From Escherichia coli (GTDB lineage: Bacteria; Pseudomonadota; Gammaproteobacteria; Enterobacterales; Enterobacteriaceae): DNA of 64,000 nt. Positions 2,473 through 25,129 of the stretch are shown piece after piece. The stretch is from assembly GCF_003334335.1 (NCBI RefSeq), contig NZ_QOWQ01000014.1. The stretch is one strand, 5' to 3'. A program made the position numbers and the translations under genes. Position 1 is the first letter of the stretch. The number at the start of each line of letters is the position of its first letter. The notes under the pieces were generated by a model that saw only the letters and a program-made list of their open reading frames with translations, was not told where the DNA came from and searched no databases.

Positions 2473-3213
2473 ATGCTGCAAAATATTCGAATTGTGCTGG
2501 TGGAGACGTCACACACCGGCAATATGGGTTCTGTTGCCCGTGCCATGAAAACAATGGGATTAACCAATCTGTGGCTGGTTAATCCACTGGTGAAACCCGA
2601 CTCCCAGGCGATTGCCCTGGCAGCAGGGGCCAGCGATGTGATTGGTAATGCTCACATCGTCGATACGCTCGACGAAGCGTTAGCCGGTTGTAGCCTGGTG
2701 GTGGGCACCAGCGCACGTTCCCGCACGCTGCCATGGCCGATGCTCGACCCGCGCGAATGCGGCCTGAAAAGCGTCGCTGAAGCGGCAAATACCCCGGTGG
2801 CGCTGGTGTTTGGTCGCGAGCGCGTCGGCTTGACCAATGAAGAGTTGCAGAAATGCCATTATCATGTCGCGATTGCGGCTAACCCGGAATACAGCTCGCT
2901 GAACCTGGCGATGGCGGTTCAGGTTATTGCCTATGAAGTGCGCATGGCCTGGCTGGCAACTCAGGAAAACGGCGAGCAGGTCGAGCATGAAGAGACGCCG
3001 TATCCGCTGGTCGATGATCTGGAGCGTTTTTATGGTCATCTGGAACAAACGCTGCTGGCAACCGGTTTTATCCGTGAAAACCATCCGGGGCAGGTGATGA
3101 ATAAATTGCGCCGTCTGTTTACCCGTGCGCGCCCGGAAAGCCAGGAGTTGAATATCCTGCGCGGGATTCTGGCTTCTATTGAGCAGCAGAATAAAGGTAA
3201 CAAGGCCGAATAA
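2473..3213 (+). CDS. trmJ: tRNA (cytidine/uridine-2'-O)-methyltransferase TrmJ (SpoU family)
   Basis: ORF 246 aa, [30 protein letters not shown]...; sits directly upstream of the isc operon. Confidence 0.95.
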
Positions 3214-3395
<182 letters not shown>

Positions 3396-3440
3396 CAACA
3401 GGTACAAACGCCACGATAAAAAAATGGCACTGAAGGTTAA

Positions 3441-3490
3441 ATACCCGACTAAATCAGTCAAGTAAATAGTTGACCAATTTACTCGGGAAT
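3441..3490 (+). promoter_or_regulatory. Two adjacent IscR type-1 operator sites in the iscR promoter
   Basis: 3441..3465 atacccgactaaatcagtcaagtaa matches the type-1 consensus ATASYYGACTRwwwYAGTCRRSTAT at about 24 of 25 positions. 3466..3490 atagttgaccaatttactcgggaat is a weaker second copy. Both lie 85-135 bp upstream of the iscR ATG. Confidence 0.6.
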
Positions 3491-3573
3491 GTCAGACTTG
3501 ACCCTGCTATGCAATACCCCCACTTTTACAATAAAAAACCCCGGGCAGGGGCGAGTTTGAGGTGAAGTAAGAC

Positions 3574-4062
3574 ATGAGACTGACATCTAAAGGGCGCTAT
3601 GCCGTGACCGCAATGCTTGACGTTGCGCTCAACTCTGAAGCGGGCCCGGTACCGTTGGCTGATATTTCCGAACGTCAGGGAATTTCCCTTTCTTATCTGG
3701 AACAACTGTTTTCCCGTCTGCGTAAAAATGGTCTGGTTTCCAGCGTACGTGGACCAGGCGGTGGTTATCTGTTAGGCAAAGATGCCAGCAGCATCGCCGT
3801 TGGCGAAGTAATTAGCGCCGTTGACGAATCTGTAGATGCCACCCGTTGTCAGGGTAAAGGCGGCTGCCAGGGCGGCGATAAATGCCTGACCCACGCGCTG
3901 TGGCGTGATTTGAGCGACCGTCTCACCGGTTTTCTCAACAACATTACTTTAGGCGAACTGGTTAATAACCAGGAAGTGCTGGATGTGTCTGGTCGTCAGC
4001 ATACTCACGACGCGCCACGCACCCGCACACAAGACGCGATCGACGTTAAGTTACGCGCTTAA
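3574..4062 (+). CDS. iscR: Fe-S cluster regulator IscR (Rrf2 family)
   Basis: ORF 162 aa, [65 protein letters not shown]... Confidence 0.97.
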
Positions 4063-4173
4063 TAAAAAGAATTCAGAATCAGGCCGGAGTGCTAAATACT
4101 CCGTAAACACGGTCGTACATCCAGCCGGTAGCCTGATTCCTTGCATTGAGTGATGTACGGAGTTTATAGAGCA

Positions 4174-5388
4174 ATGAAATTACCGATTTATCTCGACTAC
4201 TCCGCAACCACGCCGGTGGACCCGCGTGTTGCCGAGAAAATGATGCAGTTTATGACGATGGACGGAACCTTTGGTAACCCGGCCTCCCGTTCTCACCGTT
4301 TCGGCTGGCAGGCTGAAGAAGCGGTAGATATCGCCCGTAATCAGATTGCCGATCTGGTCGGCGCTGATCCGCGTGAAATCGTCTTTACCTCTGGTGCAAC
4401 CGAATCTGACAACCTGGCGATCAAAGGTGCAGCCAACTTTTATCAGAAAAAAGGCAAGCACATCATCACCAGCAAAACCGAACACAAAGCGGTACTGGAT
4501 ACCTGCCGTCAGCTGGAGCGCGAAGGTTTTGAAGTCACCTACCTGGCACCGCAGCGTAACGGCATTATCGACCTGAAAGAACTTGAAGCAGCGATGCGTG
4601 ACGACACCATCCTCGTGTCCATCATGCACGTAAATAACGAAATCGGCGTGGTGCAGGATATCGCGGCTATCGGCGAAATGTGCCGTGCTCGTGGCATTAT
4701 CTATCACGTTGATGCAACCCAGAGCGTGGGTAAACTGCCTATCGACCTGAGCCAGTTGAAAGTTGACCTGATGTCTTTCTCCGGTCACAAAATCTATGGC
4801 CCGAAAGGTATCGGTGCGCTGTATGTACGTCGTAAACCGCGCGTACGCATCGAAGCGCAAATGCACGGCGGCGGTCACGAGCGCGGTATGCGTTCCGGCA
4901 CTCTGCCTGTTCACCAGATCGTCGGAATGGGCGAGGCCTATCGCATCGCAAAAGAAGAGATGGCGACCGAGATGGAACGTCTGCGCGGCCTGCGTAACCG
5001 TCTGTGGAACGGCATCAAAGATATCGAAGAAGTTTACCTGAACGGTGACCTGGAACACGGTGCGCCGAACATTCTCAACGTCAGCTTCAACTACGTTGAA
5101 GGTGAGTCGCTGATTATGGCGCTGAAAGACCTCGCAGTTTCTTCAGGTTCCGCCTGTACGTCAGCAAGCCTCGAACCGTCCTACGTGCTGCGCGCGCTGG
5201 GGCTGAACGACGAGCTGGCACATAGCTCTATCCGTTTCTCTTTAGGTCGTTTTACTACTGAAGAAGAGATCGACTACACCATCGAGTTAGTTCGTAAATC
5301 CATCGGTCGTCTGCGTGACCTTTCTCCGCTGTGGGAAATGTACAAGCAGGGCGTGGATCTGAACAGCATCGAATGGGCTCATCATTAA
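4174..5388 (+). CDS. iscS: Cysteine desulfurase IscS
   Basis: ORF 4150..5388. Start trimmed to ATG at 4174 ([19 protein letters not shown]...) for the 404-aa product. PLP-lysine context [12 protein letters not shown] and active-site SSGSACTS present. Confidence 0.96.
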
Positions 5389-10771: not shown

Positions 10772-11548
10772 ATGTCCGAAACAAAAAACGAACTTGAAGA
10801 CCTGCTGGAAAAAGCAGCAACTGAACCGGCGCACCGCCCGGCCTTTTTCCGTACTCTACTGGAATCCACCGTCTGGGTGCCTGGTACGGCGGCGCAGGGC
10901 GAGGCTGTGGTTGAAGATAGCGCGCTTGATTTACAGCACTGGGAAAAAGAAGACGGCACCAGCGTCATTCCTTTTTTCACCTCGTTAGAAGCACTTCAAC
11001 AGGCGGTTGAAGACGAACAGGCATTTGTCGTAATGCCCGTTCGCACGCTGTTTGAGATGACACTTGGCGAAACGCTCTTCCTTAATGCCAAAATGCCAAC
11101 CGGTAAAGAATTTATGCCGCGTGAAATCAGTTTGTTGATTGGTGAAGAGGGAAATCCGCTGAGCAGCCAGGAAATCCTGGAAGGCGGTGAATCGCTGATA
11201 TTATCGGAAGTCGCAGAGCCGCCAGCACAAATGATTGATTCACTCACCACCTTATTTAAAACCATTAAGCCGGTGAAGCGTGCTTTTATTTGTTCAATTA
11301 AAGAGAACGAAGAGGCACAGCCTAATTTACTTATTGGCATTGAAGCCGATGGTGATATCGAAGAAATTATTCAGGCGACGGGAAGTGTAGCGACCGATAC
11401 ATTACCTGGCGATGAACCAATCGATATTTGTCAGGTGAAAAAAGGGGAAAAAGGAATTAGCCACTTTATTACCGAACATATTGCGCCATTCTATGAACGT
11501 CGCTGGGGTGGTTTTTTGCGTGACTTTAAACAGAATCGGATAATCTAA
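10772..11548 (+). CDS. sseB: SseB (enhanced serine sensitivity protein B)
   Basis: Track ORF starts at GTG 10763. ATG at 10772 gives MSETKNELEDLLEKAATEPAHRPAFFRTL... (258 aa). Confidence 0.9.
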   Translation: MSETKNELEDLLEKAATEPAHRPAFFRTLLESTVWVPGTAAQGEAVVEDSALDLQHWEKEDGTSVIPFFTSLEALQQAVEDEQAFVVMPVRTLFEMTLGETLFLNAKMPTGKEFMPREISLLIGEEGNPLSSQEILEGGESLILSEVAEPPAQMIDSLTTLFKTIKPVKRAFICSIKENEEAQPNLLIGIEADGDIEEIIQATGSVATDTLPGDEPIDICQVKKGEKGISHFITEHIAPFYERRWGGFLRDFKQNRII

Positions 11549-11860
11549 AATATGCCGCCCAAAGGGCGGCATTCGGGCTTACTTGCTGCTCTGAAGGTTG
11601 TTAACCACCAGTAAATTGTCGCCGGAGAGACTCCGGTTATTATTTACCTCGGTTAACAGCGCACCAGAAACAATAAGTACGATACAAAAGCACCGTATCT
11701 TCATTGTGCGGTCCATGCGAAGACCGCATCACGACAGCACCACTGGCGATATTGCCGCGATAGCAAGCGCTGTGAAACACCTGCATTTACGGCCACGGAA
11801 CATCCTTTCCTAAAGCCAGCGCCCGTTTGCGAGACGGCGGAAAGGGCCGCAGTGGATAAT
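11549..11860 (-). ncRNA. ryfA: RyfA-like ~300-nt transcript (small-protein mRNA / sRNA) in the sseB-sseA intergenic region; ends at the hairpin 11554..11570
   Basis: Minus-strand unit inferred from an intrinsic terminator oriented for the minus strand (stem gccgccc/gggcggc at 11554..11570, U-tract given by the complement of 11545..11553), a minus-strand TATTAT -10-like hexamer at 11866..11871 (no convincing -35 found) and the enclosed small ORF. Position matches my recollection of where ryfA lies relative to sseB. Exact ends are uncertain. Confidence 0.45.
11579..11716 (-). CDS. Candidate small membrane protein, 45 codons (41 from the second ATG at 11704): MDRTMKIRCFCIVLIVSGALLTEVNNNRSLSGDNLLVVNNLQSSK; TimP-like type I toxin candidate
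   Basis: Hand translation of the minus strand. Hydrophobic N-terminal segment IRCFCIVLIVSGALL followed by a polar Asn-rich tail. Stop codon lies 8 nt upstream of the terminator hairpin. No strong Shine-Dalgarno sequence seen. Below the ORF track's length cutoff. Confidence 0.4.
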   Translation of the reverse strand: MDRTMKIRCFCIVLIVSGALLTEVNNNRSLSGDNLLVVNNLQSSK

Positions 11861-12027
11861 ACACTAACAGAACAATAATAACTCTCTTTTGCTTGACAAA
11901 AAGAGAGTTACTGGCGAGTATTGTCTCCGCTGAGACGCGCTTGCATTACTACGGTAATACAACCTGCTGGAAAGGCCGCGAACCGGACCAGCAACAAAAA
12001 ACCGCCTGATTTTGGCGGTTTTTTGTT
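11834..12027 (+). ncRNA. sRNA-like module copy 1 (~194 bp): internal inverted repeat around TTGACA, conserved 22-nt box, intrinsic terminator
   Basis: Inverted repeat actctctttt/aaaagagagt flanks gcTTGACA (11893..11898). Conserved box cctgctggaaaggccgcgaacc at 11963..11984. Hairpin aaaaaaccgcc-tgatttt-ggcggtttttt near 11995..12027 with T-tracts on both strands, so strand assignment is tentative. Longest internal ORF is 12 codons. Confidence 0.4.
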
Positions 12028-12155
12028 TTTTAAAGGAAAGTGAATTTACATGTTTAAGTAATATCTTTTACCGGTTAGAATTTTTAATTTTGAGCAGGAT
12101 TTGTTTATATTTGTCTGAATTCGGACTAATAAGCCAGGTTATTTTATTACCGAAC

Positions 12156-12349
12156 ACGGCGGAAAGGGCCGGTGTCGATAATACGCTAAATAAACAATAA
12201 TTACTCTCTTTTGCTTGACAAAAAGAGAGTTACTGGTGAGTATTGTTTTGCTGTGAAGCACCTGCGTTGCTCATGTAACACAAGTCAACCTGCTGGAAAG
12301 GCCGCGAACCAGACTAGCAATAAAAAACCGCCAAATTCGGCGGTTTTTT
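12156..12349 (+). ncRNA. sRNA-like module copy 2 (~194 bp), diverged paralogue of copy 1
   Basis: Same architecture 322 bp downstream: identical start acggcggaaagggcc, same inverted repeat and TTGACA, identical 22-nt box at 12289..12310, terminator aaaaaaccgcc-aaattc-ggcggtttttt at 12322..12349. Central part diverged (roughly 75-80% identity by eye). Longest ORF 14 codons. The terminator also closes sseA on the minus strand. Confidence 0.35.
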
Positions 12350-13211: not shown

Positions 13212-13417
13212 AGGCATCTCCATTTTTGCCGGGGTTAGGCTAAATTGTCGGATGTTTAGTGAAAAGCGACAAGCAAAAGAGGCTGATTTGGCTGTCTGAG
13301 CCACAATTCTCACTAAAATTCGGATTGTATGGGCGTGATACTGAATTACATAACGTAAATTCTCACGCATAATAATTATTCGACGTTGCTAACGGGCCAT
13401 TGTGGCAGGGATGAAAA

Positions 13418-16400
13418 ATGAAAAAGTTACGCGTAGCCGCCTGCATGCTAATGCTGGCGCTGGCAGGGTGCGACAACAACGATAACGCGCCAACAGCGGT
13501 GAAAAAAGATGCGCCTTCTGAAGTTACTAAAGCGGCCTCTTCAGAAAACGCGAGTTCAGCAAAACTCTCCGTGCCGGAGAGACAAAAACTGGCCCAACAG
13601 AGTGCCGGTAAGGTGCTGACATTGCTGGATCTCTCTGAAGTCCAACTTGATGGTGCAGCCACGCTGGTGCTGACGTTCTCCATCCCTCTCGACCCGGATC
13701 AGGATTTCTCACGCGTTATTCATGTCGTCGATAAAAAAAGCGGCAAAGTGGATGGTGCCTGGGAGCTGTCAGATAATCTTAAAGAGTTACGTTTACGCCA
13801 CCTCGAACCGAAACGTGATTTGATCGTTACTATTGGCAAGGAGGTCAAAGCACTCAACAACGCAACCTTCAGTAAAGATTACGAAAAAACTATAACTACC
13901 CGCGACATCCAACCCAGCGTCGGTTTTGCCAGCCGTGGTTCGCTGCTGCCTGGCAAAGTCGTTGAAGGGCTGCCGGTAATGGCGCTCAACGTTAATAATG
14001 TCGATGTTAACTTCTTCCGCGTTAAGCCAGAATCTCTGCCAGCATTCATTAGCCAATGGGAATACCGCAATTCGCTGGCGAACTGGCAGTCAGACAAACT
14101 GCTGCAGATGGCGGATCTGGTCTACACCGGACGGTTTGATCTCAATCCTGCGCGTAACACCCGTGAAAAATTATTGCTGCCGCTGGGCGATATCAAACCG
14201 CTTCAGCAGGCGGGCGTGTATCTGGCTGTGATGAATCAGGCTGGACGTTACGATTACAGTAATCCCGCGACGCTGTTTACGTTAAGTGATATCGGCGTTT
14301 CAGCTCACCGTTATCACAATCGTCTGGATATCTTTACCCAAAGTCTGGAAAACGGCGCGGCCCAGCAAGGAATTGAAGTCTCTTTATTAAATGAGAAAGG
14401 GCAGACTCTGACTCAGGCAACCAGTGACGCTCAGGGGCATGTGCAGCTGGAAAATGATAAAAACGCGGCATTACTGTTGGCGCGTAAAGACGGTCAGACA
14501 ACGCTACTCGATTTAAAACTTCCGGCGCTGGACTTAGCAGAATTTAACATTGCTGGCGCGCCAGGCTATAGCAAACAGTTTTTCATGTTTGGCCCACGCG
14601 ATCTTTATCGCCCAGGTGAAACGGTAATCCTCAATGGTTTGCTGCGTGATGCAGACGGTAAAGCGTTGCCCAATCAACCCATCAAGTTAGACGTGATTAA
14701 ACCCGATGGGCAGGTACTCAGGAGCGTCGTTAGTCAGCCGGAGAATGGCCTCTACCACTTTACCTGGCCACTCGATAGCAATGCGGCAACCGGTATGTGG
14801 CATATTCGCGCTAACACGGGCGATAATCAGTATCGGATGTGGGATTTCCACGTCGAAGATTTTATGCCAGAGCGCATGGCGCTGAATCTGACCGGTGAGA
14901 AAACCCCGCTAACGCCGAAAGATGAAGTGAAATTCTCCGTGGTGGGGTACTACCTGTATGGTGCACCTGCTAATGGTAATACTTTGCAAGGGCAACTTTT
15001 CCTGCGCCCACTGCGTGAAGCTGTGTCAGCCTTACCTGGTTTTGAATTCGGCGATATAGCTGCCGAAAATCTTTCCCGCACGCTGGATGAAGTTCAGTTG
15101 ACGCTGGATGATAAAGGGCGCGGCGAAGTTTCTACAGAAAGCCAGTGGAAGGAAACGCATTCCCCATTACAGGTTATTTTCCAGGGTAGTTTGCTGGAAT
15201 CGGGCGGTCGCCCGGTGACGCGCCGCGCTGAGCAGGCTATCTGGCCTGCCGATGCATTGCCGGGGATCCGTCCGCAGTTCGCCTCGAAATCGGTTTACGA
15301 TTATCGTACTGACAGCACGGTGAAACAGCCCATTGTTGATGAAGGCAGTAACGCCGCTTTTGACATCGTTTATAGCGATGCGCAAGGCGTGAAAAAAGCC
15401 GTGTCGGGCTTGCAGGTGCGCCTGATTCGCGAACGCCGCGATTACTACTGGAACTGGTCAGAAGATGAAGGCTGGCAGTCACAGTTTGATCAAAAAGATC
15501 TGATCGAAAATGAACAAACTCTGGATCTGAAAGCGGACGAAACCGGCAAGGTCAGTTTTCCGGTAGAGTGGGGCGCTTATCGTCTGGAAGTCAAAGCGCC
15601 GAATGAAGCGGTCAGTAGTGTTCGTTTCTGGGCTGGCTATAGCTGGCAGGACAACAGCGACGGTAGCGGCGCAGTGCGACCCGACCGTGTCACGCTGAAA
15701 CTGGATAAAGCCAGTTATCGCCCTGGCGACACCATTAAGTTGCATATCGCCGCGCCAACGGCGGGTAAAGGTTATGCGATGGTCGAGTCCAGTGAAGGGC
15801 CGCTGTGGTGGCAAGAGATTGATGTTCGGGCTCAAGGGCTGGATCTGACGATTCCGGTCGATAAAACCTGGAATCGTCATGATCTGTATTTAAGTACGCT
15901 GGTGGTACGTCCTGGCGATAAATCTCGCTCCGCGACGCCAAAACGCGCGGTTGGTGTGTTGCATCTGCCGCTTGGCGATGAAAACCGTCGCCTCGATCTG
16001 GCGCTGGAAACACCAGCAAAAATGCGTCCCAATCAACCATTAACCGTGAAAATTAAAGCCAGCACTAAAAATGGCGAGAAGCCTAAACAGGTGAATGTGC
16101 TGGTGTCTGCCGTTGATAGTGGTGTGCTGAATATTACTGACTACGTCACGCCAGATCCGTGGCAGGCGTTCTTTGGTCAGAAACGCTATGGCGCAGACAT
16201 TTACGATATTTACGGTCAGGTTATTGAAGGTCAGGGGCGTCTGGCAGCTCTGCGTTTCGGTGGCGATGGTGATGAGCTGAAACGTGGTGGTAAACCGCCG
16301 GTCAATCACGTCAATATTGTCGTGCAGCAGGCGCTGCCGGTAACGCTCAACGAACAGGGCGAAGGCTCGGTTACACTGCCGATTGGCGATTTTAACGGTG

Positions 16401-18379
16401 AATTGCGCGTCATGGCGCAAGCCTGGACGGCAGATGACTTCGGTAGCAACGAAAGTAAAGTGATAGTTGCCGCACCGGTGATTGCTGAACTGAACATGCC
16501 GCGCTTTATGGCGAGTGGCGATACCTCGCGTCTGACGCTGGATATCACTAATCTTACCGGTAAACCGCAAAAACTGAACGTTGCCCTGACCGCCAGTGGT
16601 TTGCTTGAACTGGTCAGCGATTCACCCGCAGCCGTTGAATTAGCGCCAGGTGTGCGTACTACGCTGTTTATCCCGGTGCGAGCATTGCCGGGTTATGGCG
16701 ATGGAGAAATTCAGGCCACCATTAGCGGGTTAGCGTTACCGGGTGAAACCGTTGCCGATCAGCATAAGCAGTGGAAAATCGGCGTCCGTCCGGCGTTCCC
16801 GGCACAAACGGTTAATTACGGTACGGCGTTACAGCCTGGTGAGACATGGGCGATTCCGGCGGATGGATTGCAAAACTTCTCGCCTGTTACGCTGGAAGGG
16901 CAATTGTTGTTGAGCGGCAAACCACCGCTGAACATCGCACGTTATATCAAAGAGTTAAAAGCGTATCCGTACGGCTGTCTTGAGCAAACCGCCAGCGGCC
17001 TGTTTCCGTCACTTTATACCAACGCAGCCCAACTGCAGGCGTTGGGCATCAAAGGCGACAGTGATGAGAAACGCCGTGCATCGGTCGATATCGGCATTTC
17101 CCGTTTGCTGCAAATGCAACGTGATAACGGCGGCTTTGCGCTGTGGGATAAAAACGGTGACGAAGAGTACTGGCTGACGGCTTACGTGATGGATTTCCTG
17201 GTCCGCGCAGGCGAACAGGGTTACAGCGTGCCGACAGACGCCATTAACCGGGGTAATGAGCGTCTGCTGCGCTATTTACAAGATCCGGGCATGATGTCGA
17301 TCCCGTACGCGGATAATCTCAAAGCCAGTAAATTCGCCGTACAGTCTTACGCTGCGCTGGTGTTGGCCCGTCAGCAAAAGGCTCCGCTGGGTGCGCTGCG
17401 TGAAATCTGGGAGCATCGTGCAGATGCCGCTTCTGGTTTACCGCTGCTGCAACTTGGCGTTGCGCTGAAAACCATGGGTGATGCGACGCGTGGTGAAGAA
17501 GCGATTGCGCTGGCGCTGAAAACGCCGCGTAATAGTGATGAGCGGATATGGCTGGGTGATTACGGTAGTTCACTGCGCGACAACGCGTTAATGCTCTCCT
17601 TGCTGGAAGAAAATAAACTGCTACCCGATGAGCAGTACACTTTGCTGAACACACTTTCGCAGCAGGCGTTTGGTGAACGCTGGCTATCGACGCAGGAAAG
17701 TAACGCGTTGTTCCTGGCTGCCCGTACGATTCAGGATTTACCCGGTAAATGGCAGGCGCAAACCTCTTTCTCAGCTGAGCAGCTGACAGGCGAGAAAGCG
17801 CAAAACAGCAATCTGAATAGCGATCAACTTGTCACCTTGCAGGTGAGCAACAGTGGCGATCAGCCGTTATGGTTGCGTATGGATGCCAGCGGTTATCCGC
17901 AATCCGCACCTTTACCGGCGAACAATGTGCTGCAAATCGAGCGTCATATTCTTGGTACTGATGGTAAGAGCAAATCGCTGGACTCGTTACGTAGCGGCGA
18001 TCTGGTGCTGGTGTGGTTGCAGGTAAAAGCCAGTAACAGCGTGCCGGATGCGTTAGTCGTGGATCTGCTGCCTGCGGGTCTGGAACTGGAAAACCAGAAT
18101 CTGGCGAACGGTAGCGCCAGCCTGGAGCAAAGTGGTGGCGAAGTGCAGAACTTACTGAACCAGATGCAGCAGGCGAGCATTAAGCACATTGAGTTCCGTG
18201 ACGATCGCTTTGTGGCGGCGGTTGCCGTTGATGAATACCAACCGGTAACGCTGGTGTATCTGGCGCGGGCGGTGACGCCGGGAACGTATCAGGTACCGCA
18301 ACCGATGGTGGAATCAATGTATGTTCCCCAATGGCGGGCGACCGGCGCGGCTGAAGATCTGCTGATTGTCAGACCGTAA
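13418..18379 (+). CDS. yfhM: Alpha-2-macroglobulin family lipoprotein YfhM (ECAM), 1653 aa
   Basis: Lipoprotein signal MKKLRVAACMLMLALAGC. Thioester motif GCLEQ encoded at 16973..16987, in frame. Confidence 0.95.
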   Translation: MKKLRVAACMLMLALAGCDNNDNAPTAVKKDAPSEVTKAASSENASSAKLSVPERQKLAQQSAGKVLTLLDLSEVQLDGAATLVLTFSIPLDPDQDFSRVIHVVDKKSGKVDGAWELSDNLKELRLRHLEPKRDLIVTIGKEVKALNNATFSKDYEKTITTRDIQPSVGFASRGSLLPGKVVEGLPVMALNVNNVDVNFFRVKPESLPAFISQWEYRNSLANWQSDKLLQMADLVYTGRFDLNPARNTREKLLLPLGDIKPLQQAGVYLAVMNQAGRYDYSNPATLFTLSDIGVSAHRYHNRLDIFTQSLENGAAQQGIEVSLLNEKGQTLTQATSDAQGHVQLENDKNAALLLARKDGQTTLLDLKLPALDLAEFNIAGAPGYSKQFFMFGPRDLYRPGETVILNGLLRDADGKALPNQPIKLDVIKPDGQVLRSVVSQPENGLYHFTWPLDSNAATGMWHIRANTGDNQYRMWDFHVEDFMPERMALNLTGEKTPLTPKDEVKFSVVGYYLYGAPANGNTLQGQLFLRPLREAVSALPGFEFGDIAAENLSRTLDEVQLTLDDKGRGEVSTESQWKETHSPLQVIFQGSLLESGGRPVTRRAEQAIWPADALPGIRPQFASKSVYDYRTDSTVKQPIVDEGSNAAFDIVYSDAQGVKKAVSGLQVRLIRERRDYYWNWSEDEGWQSQFDQKDLIENEQTLDLKADETGKVSFPVEWGAYRLEVKAPNEAVSSVRFWAGYSWQDNSDGSGAVRPDRVTLKLDKASYRPGDTIKLHIAAPTAGKGYAMVESSEGPLWWQEIDVRAQGLDLTIPVDKTWNRHDLYLSTLVVRPGDKSRSATPKRAVGVLHLPLGDENRRLDLALETPAKMRPNQPLTVKIKASTKNGEKPKQVNVLVSAVDSGVLNITDYVTPDPWQAFFGQKRYGADIYDIYGQVIEGQGRLAALRFGGDGDELKRGGKPPVNHVNIVVQQALPVTLNEQGEGSVTLPIGDFNGELRVMAQAWTADDFGSNESKVIVAAPVIAELNMPRFMASGDTSRLTLDITNLTGKPQKLNVALTASGLLELVSDSPAAVELAPGVRTTLFIPVRALPGYGDGEIQATISGLALPGETVADQHKQWKIGVRPAFPAQTVNYGTALQPGETWAIPADGLQNFSPVTLEGQLLLSGKPPLNIARYIKELKAYPYGCLEQTASGLFPSLYTNAAQLQALGIKGDSDEKRRASVDIGISRLLQMQRDNGGFALWDKNGDEEYWLTAYVMDFLVRAGEQGYSVPTDAINRGNERLLRYLQDPGMMSIPYADNLKASKFAVQSYAALVLARQQKAPLGALREIWEHRADAASGLPLLQLGVALKTMGDATRGEEAIALALKTPRNSDERIWLGDYGSSLRDNALMLSLLEENKLLPDEQYTLLNTLSQQAFGERWLSTQESNALFLAARTIQDLPGKWQAQTSFSAEQLTGEKAQNSNLNSDQLVTLQVSNSGDQPLWLRMDASGYPQSAPLPANNVLQIERHILGTDGKSKSLDSLRSGDLVLVWLQVKASNSVPDALVVDLLPAGLELENQNLANGSASLEQSGGEVQNLLNQMQQASIKHIEFRDDRFVAAVAVDEYQPVTLVYLARAVTPGTYQVPQPMVESMYVPQWRATGAAEDLLIVRP

Positions 18380-20692
18380 ATGCCTCGCTTGTTAACCAAA
18401 CGCGGCTGCTGGATAACGTTGGCAGCCGCGCCCTTTCTCCTTTTTCTTGCAGCGTGGGGAGCAGATAAACTCTGGCCTCTACCGCTGCATGAAGTCAATC
18501 CCGCACGAGTGGTCGTGGCGCAGGATGGTACGCCGCTCTGGCGCTTCGCCGATGCTGACGGCATCTGGCGTTATCCGGTAACAATCGAAGATGTTTCTCC
18601 ACGTTACCTTGAAGCGCTGATCAATTATGAAGATCGCTGGTTCTGGAAGCATCCGGGGGTGAATCCATTCTCGGTGGCGCGCGCAGCATGGCAAGATCTC
18701 ACTTCGGGACGGGTTATTTCCGGTGGCAGCACGCTCACTATGCAGGTTGCTCGTCTGCTTGATCCTCACCCCAAAACATTTGGCGGCAAAATTCGCCAGC
18801 TCTGGCGCGCGTTGCAACTGGAATGGCATCTGTCTAAGCGTGAAATTCTGACCTTGTATCTTAACCGCGCTCCGTTTGGCGGTACGTTGCAGGGGATCGG
18901 TGCGGCAAGTTGGGCTTATCTCGGAAAATCGCCTGCGAATTTAAGCTATTCCGAGGCGGCAATGCTGGCGGTTTTGCCGCAAGCGCCCAGCCGTCTTCGC
19001 CCGGATCGTTGGCCGGAGCGTGCCGAAGCCGCGCGTAATAAAGTGCTCGAACGGATGGCCGTGCAAGGTGTGTGGTCCCGTGAGCAGGTAAAAGAGTCAA
19101 GGGAAGAACCCATCTGGCTGGCCCCCCGACAAATGCCGCAACTGGCACCGCTGTTTTCGCGCATGATGCTCGGTAAAAGCAAAAGCGACAAAATCACTAC
19201 TACGTTGGATGCCGGTCTTCAACGACGTCTGGAAGAACTGGCGCAAAACTGGAAAGGGCGGTTGCCACCGCGCAGCTCACTGGCGATAATCGTGGTTGAT
19301 CATACCGATATGCGTGTTCGCGGCTGGGTGGGATCGGTTGATCTCAACGATGATTCACGCTTTGGTCATGTTGATATGGTCAATTCGATCCGATCGCCAG
19401 GATCAGTGCTCAAACCGTTTGTTTATGGTCTGGCGCTGGATGAAGGCTTGATCCACCCGGCATCACTGCTGCAAGACGTCCCCCGGCGCACCGGTGATTA
19501 TCGACCAGGTAACTTTGATAGCGGTTTTCATGGCCCGATCAGCATGAGCGAGGCGCTGGTGCGCTCGCTGAACTTACCTGCTGTGCAGGTGCTGGAAGCC
19601 TATGGACCGAAACGGTTTGCGGCAAAGTTACGCAATGTTGGATTGCCGTTATATTTGCCCAACGGTGCTGCGCCGAATCTTTCACTCATTCTCGGCGGCG
19701 CTGGTGCAAAACTGGAAGATATGGCGGCAGCGTATACCGCGTTTGCTCGCCACGGCAAGGCAGGCAAATTGCGCTTACAGCCTGACGATCCGCTGCTTGA
19801 ACGGCCTTTAATGTCGTCGGGGGCGGCGTGGATCATTCGCCGGATTATGGCTGATGAAGCGCAACCCTTGCCGGATAGTGCCTTGCCGCGCGTCGCCCCA
19901 CTGGCATGGAAAACGGGCACCAGCTATGGCTATCGTGACGCCTGGGCGATTGGGGTTAACGCTCGCTATGTCATTGGGATCTGGACTGGCAGACCGGACG
20001 GCACGCCCGTTGTTGGTCAGTTTGGCTTTGCCAGTGCCGTACCATTGTTGAATCAGGTCAATAATATCTTACTGTCGCGCAGTGCGAATCTGCCGGAAGA
20101 CCCGCGCCCGAACTCAGTCACTCGTGGCGTTATCTGCTGGCCGGGCGGACAGTCTTTGCCGGAAGGTGACGGTAACTGTCGCCGCCGCCTGGCAACCTGG
20201 CTGCTGGACGGGAGTCAGCCGCCAACTCTATTACTGCCGGAGCAGGAAGGCATTAATGGCATTCGTTTCCCCATCTGGCTGGATGAAAATGGCAAACGTG
20301 TTGCCGCTGATTGCCCGCAAGCGCGACAAGAAATGATAAATGTCTGGCCGCTACCGCTGGAACCCTGGCTGCCCGCATCAGAACGTCGCGCTGTGCGCTT
20401 ACCACCGGCCTCGACAAGTTGCCCGCCATACGGTCACGATGCCCAGCTCCCGCTGCAGCTGACAGGCGTTCGCGATGGCGCGATTATTAAACGTTTACCG
20501 GGCGCAGCGGAAGCGACTTTGCCGTTGCAATCAAGTGGAGGGGCAGGTGAACGCTGGTGGTTTCTGAATGGCGAACCGTTAACTGAACGCGGGCGCAACG
20601 TGACCCTGCATTTGACGGATAAAGGTGATTATCAATTGCTGGTGATGGATGACGTGGGGCAAATCGCGACAGTGAAATTTGTCATGCAATAG
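18380..20692 (+). CDS. pbpC: Penicillin-binding protein 1C (glycosyltransferase/transpeptidase)
   Basis: ORF 770 aa, MPRLLTKRGCWITLAAAPFLLFLAAWG... ATG immediately follows the yfhM stop codon (TAA-ATG). Confidence 0.95.
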   Translation: MPRLLTKRGCWITLAAAPFLLFLAAWGADKLWPLPLHEVNPARVVVAQDGTPLWRFADADGIWRYPVTIEDVSPRYLEALINYEDRWFWKHPGVNPFSVARAAWQDLTSGRVISGGSTLTMQVARLLDPHPKTFGGKIRQLWRALQLEWHLSKREILTLYLNRAPFGGTLQGIGAASWAYLGKSPANLSYSEAAMLAVLPQAPSRLRPDRWPERAEAARNKVLERMAVQGVWSREQVKESREEPIWLAPRQMPQLAPLFSRMMLGKSKSDKITTTLDAGLQRRLEELAQNWKGRLPPRSSLAIIVVDHTDMRVRGWVGSVDLNDDSRFGHVDMVNSIRSPGSVLKPFVYGLALDEGLIHPASLLQDVPRRTGDYRPGNFDSGFHGPISMSEALVRSLNLPAVQVLEAYGPKRFAAKLRNVGLPLYLPNGAAPNLSLILGGAGAKLEDMAAAYTAFARHGKAGKLRLQPDDPLLERPLMSSGAAWIIRRIMADEAQPLPDSALPRVAPLAWKTGTSYGYRDAWAIGVNARYVIGIWTGRPDGTPVVGQFGFASAVPLLNQVNNILLSRSANLPEDPRPNSVTRGVICWPGGQSLPEGDGNCRRRLATWLLDGSQPPTLLLPEQEGINGIRFPIWLDENGKRVAADCPQARQEMINVWPLPLEPWLPASERRAVRLPPASTSCPPYGHDAQLPLQLTGVRDGAIIKRLPGAAEATLPLQSSGGAGERWWFLNGEPLTERGRNVTLHLTDKGDYQLLVMDDVGQIATVKFVMQ

Positions 20693-20755
20693 TCTGTTTT
20701 GTCCCTGATTGTTGCTAAAACTCATTTTATTTTAAAAAAATGTTACCTTCATCAA

Positions 20756-20784
20756 TAGTCAACGGCCCTGTTGCTCATTATAAT
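20756..20784 (+). promoter_or_regulatory. Candidate ndk promoter (-35 tagtca, 17-bp spacer, -10 tataat)
   Basis: tagtca at 20756..20761 and tataat at 20779..20784, about 57 bp upstream of the ndk ATG. Confidence 0.35.
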
Positions 20785-20840
20785 CCGCGCCATCTCGTAC
20801 GCTGGTACAGACAACAACAGAACAATTTACAGAGGTAAAA

Positions 20841-21335: not shown

Positions 21336-21375
21336 CCCCGGACGAGCAGCCGCTCACCGGGGCGTTTCTTTTTTC
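21336..21375 (+). terminator. Putative intrinsic terminator downstream of ndk
   Basis: Stem ccccgg (21336..21341) / ccgggg (21357..21362) followed by cgtttcttttttc. Confidence 0.4.
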
Positions 21376-23900: not shown

Positions 23901-25019
23901 ATGCATAACCAGGCTCCAATTCAACGTAGAAAATCAACACGTATTTACGTTGGGAATGTGCCGATTGGCGATGGTGCTCCCATCGCCGTACAGTCCATGA
24001 CCAATACGCGTACGACAGACGTCGAAGCAACGGTCAATCAAATCAAGGCGCTGGAACGCGTTGGCGCTGATATCGTCCGTGTATCCGTACCGACGATGGA
24101 CGCGGCAGAAGCGTTCAAACTCATCAAACAGCAGGTTAACGTGCCGCTGGTGGCTGACATCCACTTCGACTATCGCATTGCGCTGAAAGTAGCGGAATAC
24201 GGCGTCGATTGTCTGCGTATTAACCCTGGCAATATCGGTAATGAAGAGCGTATTCGCATGGTGGTTGACTGTGCGCGCGATAAAAACATTCCGATCCGTA
24301 TTGGCGTTAACGCCGGATCGCTGGAAAAAGATCTGCAAGAAAAGTATGGCGAACCGACGCCGCAGGCGTTGCTGGAATCTGCCATGCGTCATGTTGATCA
24401 TCTCGATCGCCTGAACTTCGATCAGTTCAAAGTCAGCGTGAAAGCGTCTGACGTCTTCCTCGCTGTTGAGTCTTATCGTTTGCTGGCAAAACAGATCGAT
24501 CAGCCGTTGCATCTGGGGATCACCGAAGCCGGTGGTGCGCGCAGCGGGGCAGTAAAATCCGCCATTGGTTTAGGTCTGCTGCTGTCTGAAGGCATCGGCG
24601 ACACGCTGCGCGTATCGCTGGCGGCCGATCCGGTCGAAGAGATCAAAGTCGGTTTCGATATTTTGAAATCGCTGCGTATCCGTTCGCGAGGGATCAACTT
24701 CATCGCCTGCCCGACCTGTTCGCGTCAGGAATTTGATGTTATCGGTACGGTTAACGCGCTGGAGCAACGCCTGGAAGATATCATCACTCCGATGGACGTT
24801 TCGATTATCGGCTGCGTGGTGAATGGCCCAGGTGAGGCGCTGGTTTCTACACTCGGCGTCACCGGCGGCAACAAGAAAAGCGGCCTCTATGAAGATGGCG
24901 TGCGCAAAGACCGTCTGGACAACAACGATATGATCGACCAGCTGGAAGCACGCATTCGTGCGAAAGCCAGTCAGCTGGACGAAGCGCGTCGAATTGACGT
25001 TCAGCAGGTTGAAAAATAA
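23901..25019 (+). CDS. ispG: HMBPP synthase IspG (GcpE)
   Basis: ORF 372 aa, [36 protein letters not shown]... Confidence 0.97.
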
Positions 25020-25108
25020 TAACGTGATGGGAAGCGCCTCGCTTCCCGTGTATGATTGAACCCGCATGGCTCCCGAAACATTGAGGGAAGCGTTGAGGGT
25101 TCATTTTT
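25020..25108 (+). ncRNA. sroE: SroE-like 3'UTR-derived small RNA candidate between ispG and hisS
   Basis: Stable hairpin gggaagcg-cct-cgcttccc at 25029..25047, and a second stem gaaccc/gggttc followed by atttttat ending near 25108. Positional assignment only. Confidence 0.35.
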
Positions 25109-25129
25109 ATATTCAGAAAGAGAATAAAC

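Follow-up and report, generated by a model that had tools for sequence, protein, structure and literature searches.

Here we describe the yfhM-pbpC gene pair as it stands in a 64,000-nucleotide stretch of Escherichia coli DNA (NCBI RefSeq assembly GCF_003334335.1, contig NZ_QOWQ01000014.1; the window), in which yfhM, the gene for a type I bacterial alpha-2-macroglobulin (the E. coli alpha-2-macroglobulin, ECAM), is followed on the same strand by pbpC, the gene for penicillin-binding protein (PBP) 1C. Taken as a whole, the evidence is best explained by this region being the chromosomal yfhM-pbpC pair, intact, in a strain very near K-12, and we hold this reading with high confidence. A first-pass annotation of the window had named both genes, their lengths, the lipoprotein nature of YfhM, its thioester and the junction between the two reading frames; all of these coordinates and features proved correct, and the two open reading frames (ORFs), of 1653 and 770 amino acids (aa), agree with a mechanical ORF list (Table 1). 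The same annotation called the pair noteworthy but already described, and rightly so, for both the class and the pairing are described in the literature; since the pairing stands there, the pair is ordinary and already known, and nothing is new about the pair itself. Two of its terms, "translationally coupled" for the genes and "cell-wall-repair" for PBP1C, reach further than the evidence. A core envelope-defence locus of E. coli is thereby confirmed intact in this strain. Three features of it, namely the junction without a Shine-Dalgarno (SD) sequence, an RNA hairpin within the first codons of pbpC and a glutamine at position 140 of PbpC, are small, testable additions.

An 8.3-kb query spanning the pair matched 5426 of 5426 complete E. 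coli genomes, always on the chromosome, and in 5424 of them a single match covered at least 80% of the query. Among the E. coli matches listed, which include K-12 MG1655, C600 and J53, 8301 bases are covered at an identity that rounds to 100.0%, and the annotation under the listed matches reads yfhM (alpha2-macroglobulin), pbpC (peptidoglycan glycosyltransferase PbpC), ndk and sseA. The neighbourhood in the MG1655 record runs pepB, sseB, timP, sseA (on the opposite strand), yfhM, pbpC, ndk, rlmN, rodZ, ispG. Across 14,301 aligned bases the window differs from MG1655 by six substitutions and no insertions or deletions; two of the substitutions, at 16560 and 19288, lie inside the gene pair. A check for frameshifts against the reference, proposed in the first-pass annotation, found neither a stop nor a frameshift inside yfhM or pbpC relative to the K-12 genes; with no such lesion and with all motifs present, disruption of either gene is ruled out. 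The ORF lengths, the ECAM structure matches at E = 0 and the 1568-bit equivalog match of PbpC are far beyond chance.

A search of NCBIfam release 20 with the 1653-aa YfhM (13418..18376) gave no family at E <= 0.001, although its RefSeq name is alpha2-macroglobulin, so YfhM was identified through Pfam and the PDB. Its matches to the E. coli entries 4RTD, 4ZIQ and 5A42 have E = 0 and extend from end to end of the crystallised proteins, and a domain search recovers the complete macroglobulin set in the order bMG1, A2M_bMG2, bMG3, MG2, bMG5, bMG6, A2M_BRD, A2M, TED_complement, CUB_A2MG, bMG10, every match at E <= 2e-7. The N-terminus, MKKLRVAACMLMLALAGCDNN, carries a signal peptide with a lipobox (MKKLRVAACMLMLA-LAGC, Cys18), bearing out the earlier description of the protein as a lipoprotein. 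Codons and reading frame likewise bear out an intact GCLEQ motif, in which Cys1187 and Gln1190, named as the thioester pair (PMC4498604), are the same in all 49 orthologous loci. The bait stretch Arg923-Leu942 is disordered in elastase-cleaved ECAM, and the RDDR motif of the C-terminal MG domain shields the thioester and binds the cleaved bait (PMC4498604); Arg956 and Met1634 of crystallised ECAM are also present in YfhM here. A lipobox Cys, a bait region, CLEQ and a gene adjoining pbpC characterise the type I macroglobulins of bacteria (PMC3735191, PMC3328433, PMC5764988). YfhM has the lipobox Cys, the domain array and CxEQ, and its gene adjoins pbpC on the upstream side.

PbpC matches the NCBIfam equivalog NF008414 over residues 1-770 at 1567.9 bits (cut-off 1121) and TIGR02073 at 920.6 bits (cut-off 494.2). 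Within it Pfam finds Transgly at residues 61-226 (E = 4.9e-52), Transpeptidase at 303-519 and BiPBP_C at 687-767. GT51 motif 2 is present as GGSTLTMQ, in keeping with GxSTxTxQ, and the active-site residues of the transpeptidase domain are kept in the orthologues (Ser342 in 64 of 64, Lys345 in 63 of 63). Among the PDB structures searched none is a PBP1C, the best match being PBP1A of Pseudomonas aeruginosa (4OON, 1.4e-54). PbpC is the third class A PBP, anchored in the membrane by its N-terminus and comprising the GT51 domain, a transpeptidase domain that keeps its three motifs, and BiPBP_C. Disruption of the thioester or of the PBP active-site motifs, which the earlier annotation had named as the observation that would count against an intact pair, was looked for by alignment; the motifs are intact, and the Gln found at GT51 motif 3 is the norm of its clade, as set out below.

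Table 1. Features of the yfhM-pbpC pair and, in the last rows, of the remainder of the window (position 1 is the first letter of the window)
Feature	Position	Strand	Evidence or remark
yfhM (ECAM), type I bacterial alpha-2-macroglobulin, 1653 aa	13418..18379, stop included	+	ATG ORF; yfhM annotation in K-12; PDB and Pfam matches
Lipobox L15-A16-G17-C18	13460..13471	+	read from translation; Asp19 at +2 is 13472..13474
Bait region core Arg923-Leu942	16184..16243	+	R923 and L942 present; between Pfam A2M_BRD 759-905 and A2M 976-1056
Single-nucleotide polymorphism (SNP) GGT (Gly1048) vs GAT (Asp)	16560	+	Asp in K-12, PDB sequences and Salmonella
Thioester motif G-C-L-E-Q	16973..16987	+	GGC TGT CTT GAG CAA in frame, residues 1186-1190; Cys1187 16976..16978, Gln1190 16985..16987
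RDDR motif, residues 1594-1597	18197..18208	+	C-terminal MG domain
E-x-M-Y motif, ESMY 1632-1635, including Met1634	18311..18322	+	C-terminal MG domain; PMC4498604
TAA-ATG junction of yfhM and pbpC	18377..18382	+	AGACCG-TAA-ATG-CCT; TAA 18377-18379, ATG 18380-18382, 0 nt between
pbpC, penicillin-binding protein 1C, 770 aa	18380..20692, stop included	+	ATG ORF; NCBIfam and Pfam matches
RNA hairpin, pbpC +22..+51, codons 8-17	18401..18430, tail to about 18448	+	12-bp uninterrupted stem, three G-U pairs, 6-nt loop
GT51 motif 1, E84-DRWFWKHPG, catalytic Glu84	18629..18658	+	aligned to ED..F..H.G of PBP1A structures
GT51 motif 3 position, G136-K-I-R-Q140	18785..18799	+	PBP1A structures have R-K-x-x-E (alignments to 2OQO, 3NB6, 4OON, 3UDF, 5U2G)
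SNP ATA (Ile303) vs ATG (Met) in K-12	19288	+	PbpC M303I; GATGAT to -10-like GATAAT
Transpeptidase motif S342-V-L-K345, active-site Ser	19403..19414	+	aligned to PBP1A motif; conserved in family representatives
Transpeptidase motif S396-L-N398	19565..19573	+	aligned to PBP1A; conserved in family representatives
Transpeptidase motif K511-T-G513	19910..19918	+	aligned to PBP1A; conserved in family representatives
BiPBP_C (PF06832), residues 687-767	20438..20680	+	E = 4.8e-17; hallmark of PBP1C-type class A PBPs
Sigma-70-like promoter candidate ATTACA-17-CATAAT	13345..13373	+	sseA-yfhM divergent intergenic region; consensus scan only, site count there equals chance expectation, no evidence of function
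ryfA	11547..11850	-	Rfam match; known K-12 feature
timP (small toxin gene)	about 11579..11704	-	placed by offset from K-12 record; within ryfA; known K-12 feature
IS128 small RNA (sRNA)	11982..12190	-	Rfam match; known K-12 feature
iscRS stability element	4063..4172	+	Rfam match; known K-12 feature
sroE	25019..25110	+	Rfam match; known K-12 feature
naRNA4	3275..3346	+	Rfam match; known K-12 feature

YfhM would be exported, lipidated on Cys18 and retained on the periplasmic side of the inner membrane, and its Asp at +2 is consistent with this. Such an Asp is the inner-membrane retention signal of lipoproteins. ECAM is anchored in the inner membrane (PMC4498604, PMC9181621), and for the K-12 protein both thioester formation and covalent protease capture after bait cleavage have been shown (PMC3328433, PMC4498604): the cut bait frees the C-terminal MG domain from the thioester domain, exposing Cys1187-Gln1190 (PMC4498604), and the ECAM monomer inhibits by covalent tethering and steric hindrance as a "snap-trap", where human alpha-2-macroglobulin (A2M) is a tetrameric cage (PMC9181621). 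Because that experimentally studied protein differs from YfhM here by one residue, the trap mechanism can be transferred to it. An endopeptidase reaching the periplasm would cut the disordered bait near residues 923-942, the cleaved bait would push the C-terminal MG domain off the thioester domain, and the exposed thioester would bond the protease covalently, leaving it tethered and sterically blocked. Thioester formation and protease capture are thus predicted for this YfhM allele from its near-identity to the K-12 protein.

Among known systems, the K-12 YfhM/ECAM (4RTD, 4ZIQ, 5A42; Garcia-Ferrer 2015, Fyfe 2015, Neves 2012, Doan and Gettins 2008) is the same gene, of the same length and domain order and with the same lipobox, bait, CLEQ, RDDR and ExMY; against the K-12 genome sequence the single differing residue is Gly1048, a rare natural allele, in place of Asp, and the 4RTD construct has P219 and R605 where YfhM here has S and Q. 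The Sa-A2M of Salmonella enterica (4U48, 4U4J, 4U59) is a type I orthologue, matched in 4U48 over residues 18-1653 at 3034 bits, which shares the lipoprotein nature, the thioester and the position of its gene next to pbpC (PMC5764988) but comes from another species and shows about 20 differences in 100 aligned residues. Human A2M and complement C3 have in common with YfhM the MG2, A2M, TED and CxEQ architecture and bait-triggered activation, through weak but significant matches (E about 1e-6; PMC4498604, PMC3328433); human A2M, however, is a secreted tetrameric cage (a "Venus flytrap"), whereas ECAM is a membrane-anchored monomer that tethers proteases (PMC9181621). The type II macroglobulins, such as P. 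aeruginosa MagD and the E. coli YfaS class, belong to the same superfamily and are periplasmic, inner-membrane-associated and equipped with a bait region (PMC3735191, PMC5764988), but they are without the lipobox Cys and CxEQ and are found in the six-gene mag operon rather than beside pbpC; since both Cys residues and the pbpC neighbour are present, YfhM here is of type I. PBP1A and PBP1B (4OON, 3UDF, 2OQO, 5FGZ), for their part, share with PbpC the GT51 and transpeptidase architecture and the N-terminal anchor, and ED..F..H.G, GGSTLTMQ, SxxK, SxN and KTG all align; PBP1C differs in its added BiPBP_C, in Gln140 for the Glu of RKxxE and in being without the insert domains specific to PBP1A and PBP1B.

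The Glu of RKxxE is the second catalytic Glu of GT51, and the motif reads RKIKE in the Aquifex structure 2OQO and RKINE in 4OON. PbpC is without the canonical R-K-x-x-E, which gives no ground to exclude the PBP1C assignment. Column 140 is Gln in K-12 and in every one of the 71 orthologues fetched; Gln140 is therefore no lesion of the window, and that candidate was dropped. Beyond these, an unbiased family search of 1.84 billion cluster representatives, of which the best 150 were taken, gave 80 with Gln, 58 with Glu and 3 with Asp at this column; Gln stands in all 46 of the closest representatives that cover it, and more distant PBP1C-type proteins keep Glu. A tie between Gln140 and linkage to the macroglobulin gene (hereafter a2m) was also considered and is not supported: one Glu-type homologue (P0059, at locus L076) has a CLEQ-bearing a2m upstream, a PBP1C-type homologue (P0049) has none, and P0117 is uninformative. 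With a Glu-type homologue also a2m-linked, the substitution marks a clade and not the linkage. We found no discussion of it in the literature searched. In the work of Schiffer and Holtje 1999 the K-12 PBP1C reportedly had moenomycin-sensitive glycosyltransferase activity.

Both substitutions inside the pair are missense. An exact 61-mer with YfhM D1048G occurs in 6 of 5422 E. coli genomes, and Gly is the native residue at this column in 24 Lysobacterales-type orthologues. PbpC M303I is found, again as an exact 61-mer, in 0 of 5330 complete E. coli genomes; at that column 23 orthologues carry Met, 29 Leu, 9 Ile, 2 Ala and 1 Val. Judged from these columns, neither change looks damaging, and with both residues natural in orthologues the two were ruled out as lesions. 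As a separate observation, the SNP at 19288 completes a promoter-like TTGCCA-17-GATAAT inside pbpC (19262..19290, + strand; 10 of 12 matches), which is probably a chance site, since the scan found no more such sites than expected.

At the junction the pbpC ATG directly abuts the yfhM stop, as first annotated. No SD sequence was found in the 25 nt upstream of pbpC: the best duplex with the anti-SD sequence reaches +0.4 kcal/mol, weaker than at about 90% of random positions in the window (median -2.85 kcal/mol), compared with -6.0 for yfhM, -7.1 for ndk and -5.9 for rlmN. For orthologues we used a pattern scan for the PbpC motif EDRWFWKHPG, one genome per species, which gave 73 loci; 68 of these have enough upstream DNA, comprising 34 enterobacterial (Escherichia, Citrobacter, a Klebsiella metagenome-assembled genome, Superficieibacter, Phytobacter, Kosakonia, Pluralibacter, Atlantibacter and Franconibacter) and 34 Lysobacterales-type loci. 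In all 68, across two distant orders, an a2m gene lies directly upstream of pbpC on the same strand. Of the enterobacterial loci, 21 have no gap between the genes, 8 have a gap of 1 nt and 5 one of 6-12 nt; no SD stands before the start at any of the 29 tight junctions (-0.6 to +0.6 kcal/mol), while the five looser ones have a GTG start and an SD-like stretch of -2.0 to -5.7 kcal/mol (one below -4). The SD-free junction of 0-1 nt is retained in these 29 enteric loci across about 30% protein divergence. From the a2m stop to the PbpC motif the distance is 243-258 nt in enterics vs 248-2760 nt in the Lysobacterales-type loci. A second element at the junction, a start-masking hairpin between the 3' codons of yfhM and codons 2-5 of pbpC, is predicted in the window (z = -3.5) but was set aside as not conserved.

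The hairpin inside pbpC has the sequence CGCGGCUGCUGG-AUAACG-UUGGCAGCCGCG, followed by a U-rich CCCUUUCUCCUUUUUCUU, and a folding energy of -19.7 to -20.8 kcal/mol (z = -2.96). It is among the strongest hairpins on the + strand of the window, most others of like strength resembling gene-end terminators with flanking A/U tracts. An uninterrupted hairpin of 11-14 bp and about -17 to -28 kcal/mol stands at a matching distance from the start codon in 32 of the 34 enteric loci, in most of them at about +21/+22 to +51/+52. The stem sequence differs among genera and the encoded peptide varies with it (KRGCWITLAAAP, KTRWRWLAGF, RSRGLWLAGA, KKCACVIAGA). When the 32 sequences are aligned, 92.9% of cells are paired vs 75.1% in shuffles (28-60% in slid controls), two-sided changes occur in 10 of the 12 stem pairs, and the covariation score is 0.545 vs 0.217 in shuffles, a value reached by 0 of 500 shuffles; RNAalifold independently predicts a matching helix. 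Within Escherichia itself, CGC to CGU in the 5' arm is paired with GCC-GCG to GUC-ACG in the 3' arm, changing Ala-Ala to Val-Thr. Here the pairing of the RNA appears to outweigh the encoded peptide. The tail in the window, CCCUUUCUCCUU, has 4 U in 10, and that of other genera 5-7 U in 10. Rfam gave no match in 18250..18550 even at E <= 10, and none inside yfhM-pbpC at gathering thresholds. Lysobacterales-type loci, too, have stable hairpins, some of them resembling repetitive extragenic palindromic (REP) elements, within 100 nt after the a2m stop (median best -15.4 kcal/mol vs -6.2 kcal/mol inside a2m).

Taken together, junction and hairpin point to a possible arrangement for the expression of the second gene. 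Because no SD sequence precedes pbpC, we infer that it would be translated mainly by ribosomes that, having just terminated at the yfhM TAA, begin again at the ATG next to it; termination-reinitiation is, as a reading of the sequence, plausible and well supported for the enteric lineage, though not universal. The hairpin, 22-51 nt into pbpC, could further limit pbpC expression relative to yfhM, and may set the amount of PBP1C made. Stem-loops within operons are known to set differential expression, as REP hairpins of the malE-malF type and leaky intrinsic terminators do. The pbpC hairpin is like these in being stable, conserved, placed right after the upstream gene of the operon and about as strong as the terminators at gene ends in the window, and the REP-like Lysobacterales hairpins occupy an equivalent place; it is unlike them in that it is no REP repeat and lies inside the downstream coding sequence, the two genes abutting. 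Our preferred reading is that it would work as a leaky terminator or as a 3'-end-protecting stem-loop, holding PBP1C below ECAM and relieved by re-initiating ribosomes as they translate through it. More tentatively, and with rather more doubt than belief, we propose that the covarying hairpin and the SD-less junction form an undescribed cis-regulatory device, in which the majority of yfhM transcripts would stop, or gain protection, at the hairpin and only re-initiating ribosomes would open it and allow PBP1C synthesis, fixing a low PBP1C:ECAM ratio, with the Gln140 clade of PBP1C being perhaps an attenuated or partner-activated glycosyltransferase. If true, such a PBP1C could account for the absence of a laboratory function. 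The three side observations, an SD-less abutting start conserved in enterics, a hairpin in the first 17 codons with compensatory substitutions that alter the peptide, and a clade-wide Glu-to-Gln change at a catalytic position, could help explain both the purpose of PBP1C and how its level is tied to that of ECAM.

Several points weigh against these readings. The U-rich tail is interrupted (CCCUUUCUCC...) and, as it doubles as coding sequence for a hydrophobic membrane segment, need not be a terminator tail; the consensus scan for terminators passed over the pbpC hairpin, and the Term-seq supplements of PMC7815308 and PMC12207403 contain no pbpC or yfhM entries. That an SD-free sequence is conserved follows in part from shared ancestry and from the coding of ECAM, whose conserved C-terminus is specified by the 20 nt ahead of pbpC. 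The start-masking pairing varies across enteric loci, with a mean unpaired probability of 0.21-0.69 (median 0.43). Lysobacterales genes lie from tens to about 2460 nt apart, so tight coupling is no property of the pairing as such, and genera such as Salmonella and Enterobacter are left out because the sample was chosen by the exact EDRWFWKHPG motif. In the literature searched we found no experiment that shows yfhM-pbpC translational coupling or tests the hairpin, and PMC7554673 and PMC6131605 offer no demonstration that ECAM and PBP1C are functionally linked.

The same observations can be arranged in other ways. The two genes may be merely co-transcribed and compact, with pbpC initiated independently (by SD-independent 30S binding or from an internal promoter in yfhM) and the TAA-ATG without mechanistic meaning. 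SD-less initiation does occur in E. coli, and the Lysobacterales-type loci, which keep the gene order across spacers tens to hundreds of bases long and, in four Lysobacter loci, across 1.1-2.5 kb of inserted genes, make coupling dispensable for the pairing; genomic SELEX (systematic evolution of ligands by exponential enrichment) of minor sigma factors, furthermore, gave a holoenzyme-binding peak for one of them under pbpC < yfhM > sseA, classed as inside a gene (PMC5493296). We still doubt this account, given an anti-SD pairing before pbpC poorer than at most random positions, an SD-free junction of 0-1 nt in 29 of 34 enteric loci with SD-like stretches appearing where the gap is 6-12 nt, and promoter-like sites inside the two genes at the chance rate (7 found vs 6.0 expected in the consensus scan). 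As for the hairpin, the main rival to a terminator or stabiliser is a purely translational role: it would be either a roadblock to the first rounds of elongation, by which PBP1C would stay low, or a barrier keeping the terminating ribosome over UAA-AUG, by which re-initiation would be favoured. In most enteric loci the hairpin keeps a set distance from the start codon, a little downstream of the stretch that an initiating ribosome covers, its U tract in Escherichia is imperfect and the Lysobacterales spacer hairpins are without U tracts, all of which would suit such a role; yet in several genera A and U tracts flank the stem as in a bidirectional intrinsic terminator (e.g., AAAACCCGC...GCGGGUUUU), the hairpin ranks with gene-end terminators among the strongest of the window, and neither translational mode has direct support, so that we consider this role somewhat improbable and continue to prefer a leaky terminator or protective stem-loop.

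A wider question is whether the two products work together at all. The idea of joint defence and repair traces to Budd et al. 2004 (via PMC4498604, PMC3328433, PMC5764988), and a cell-wall-repair role of PBP1C beside ECAM is a hypothesis drawn from gene linkage. Under laboratory conditions no role of PBP1C is known, and it is no substitute for PBP1A and PBP1B together (PMC7554673); its first and only reported phenotype, support of LdtD-dependent labelling, appears when it is overproduced (PMC6131605). These reports, together with the PBP1C-type homologue that has no a2m upstream (P0049), would fit a linkage that reflects no more than co-inheritance or co-regulation, with PBP1C serving, for example, as spare glycosyltransferase capacity. 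Against this stands the same-strand order of a2m directly before pbpC in all 68 informative loci, which span two distant orders, and also upstream of the more distant Glu-type homologue of L076; such persistence argues for a shared function, and we think independent roles the less likely case. Far less probable still, to the point that we give it very little weight, is that the pair is present but functionally impaired, whether by rare or private missense alleles or by a PbpC without its second catalytic Glu. The rarity of D1048G and M303I, the Asp1048 kept in Salmonella and in all PDB sequences, and Gln140 itself could be read that way; however, Gly is native at column 1048 in 24 distant orthologues, column 303 is a hydrophobic position (M, L, I, V or A) with Ile in 9 orthologues, Gln140 is common to K-12 and to every fetched orthologue, and the K-12 PBP1C, as noted, is said to have glycosyltransferase activity.

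The Lysobacterales-type loci hold some further observations. In four Lysobacter loci (L007, at about 2615..4834, L052, L070 and L074) the 1.1-2.5 kb between a2m and pbpC contain one or two paralogous lipoprotein genes, whose products have a lipobox (e.g., MRKIAVLSLMLGLAAC) and a GDLDRDGxDD motif and draw only faint FG-GAP hits in Pfam; these may be an accessory component of the system. Pseudoxanthomonas and Lysobacter spacers between a2m and pbpC carry repeated REP-like hairpins right after the a2m stop, of the forms AUCCCGGCGMAAGCCGGGAU and CCCUUCUCCC...GGGAGAAGGG (L013, L026, L037, L040, L047, L050, L053; L008, L012, L044, L059, L065).

With regard to transcription around the pair, the minor sigma factor peak of PMC5493296 lies at K-12 coordinate 2649866, inside or near the 5' part of yfhM. 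An entry "penicillin-binding protein 1C" in a sigma-E regulon table (PMC2731931) was considered and rejected as evidence on pbpC; it belongs to yfgM-bamB-der and was apparently mislabelled. Repeats in the region amount to short, chance-level matches. Between the pbpC stop and ndk (20693..20840) there is no terminator-like site, the first one following ndk at 21351..21364, so read-through from pbpC into ndk is possible; a promoter-like TAGTCA-17-TATAAT also lies between these two genes, at 20756..20784. Elsewhere in the window, the Rfam matches and timP are features already known from K-12 (Table 1, last rows).

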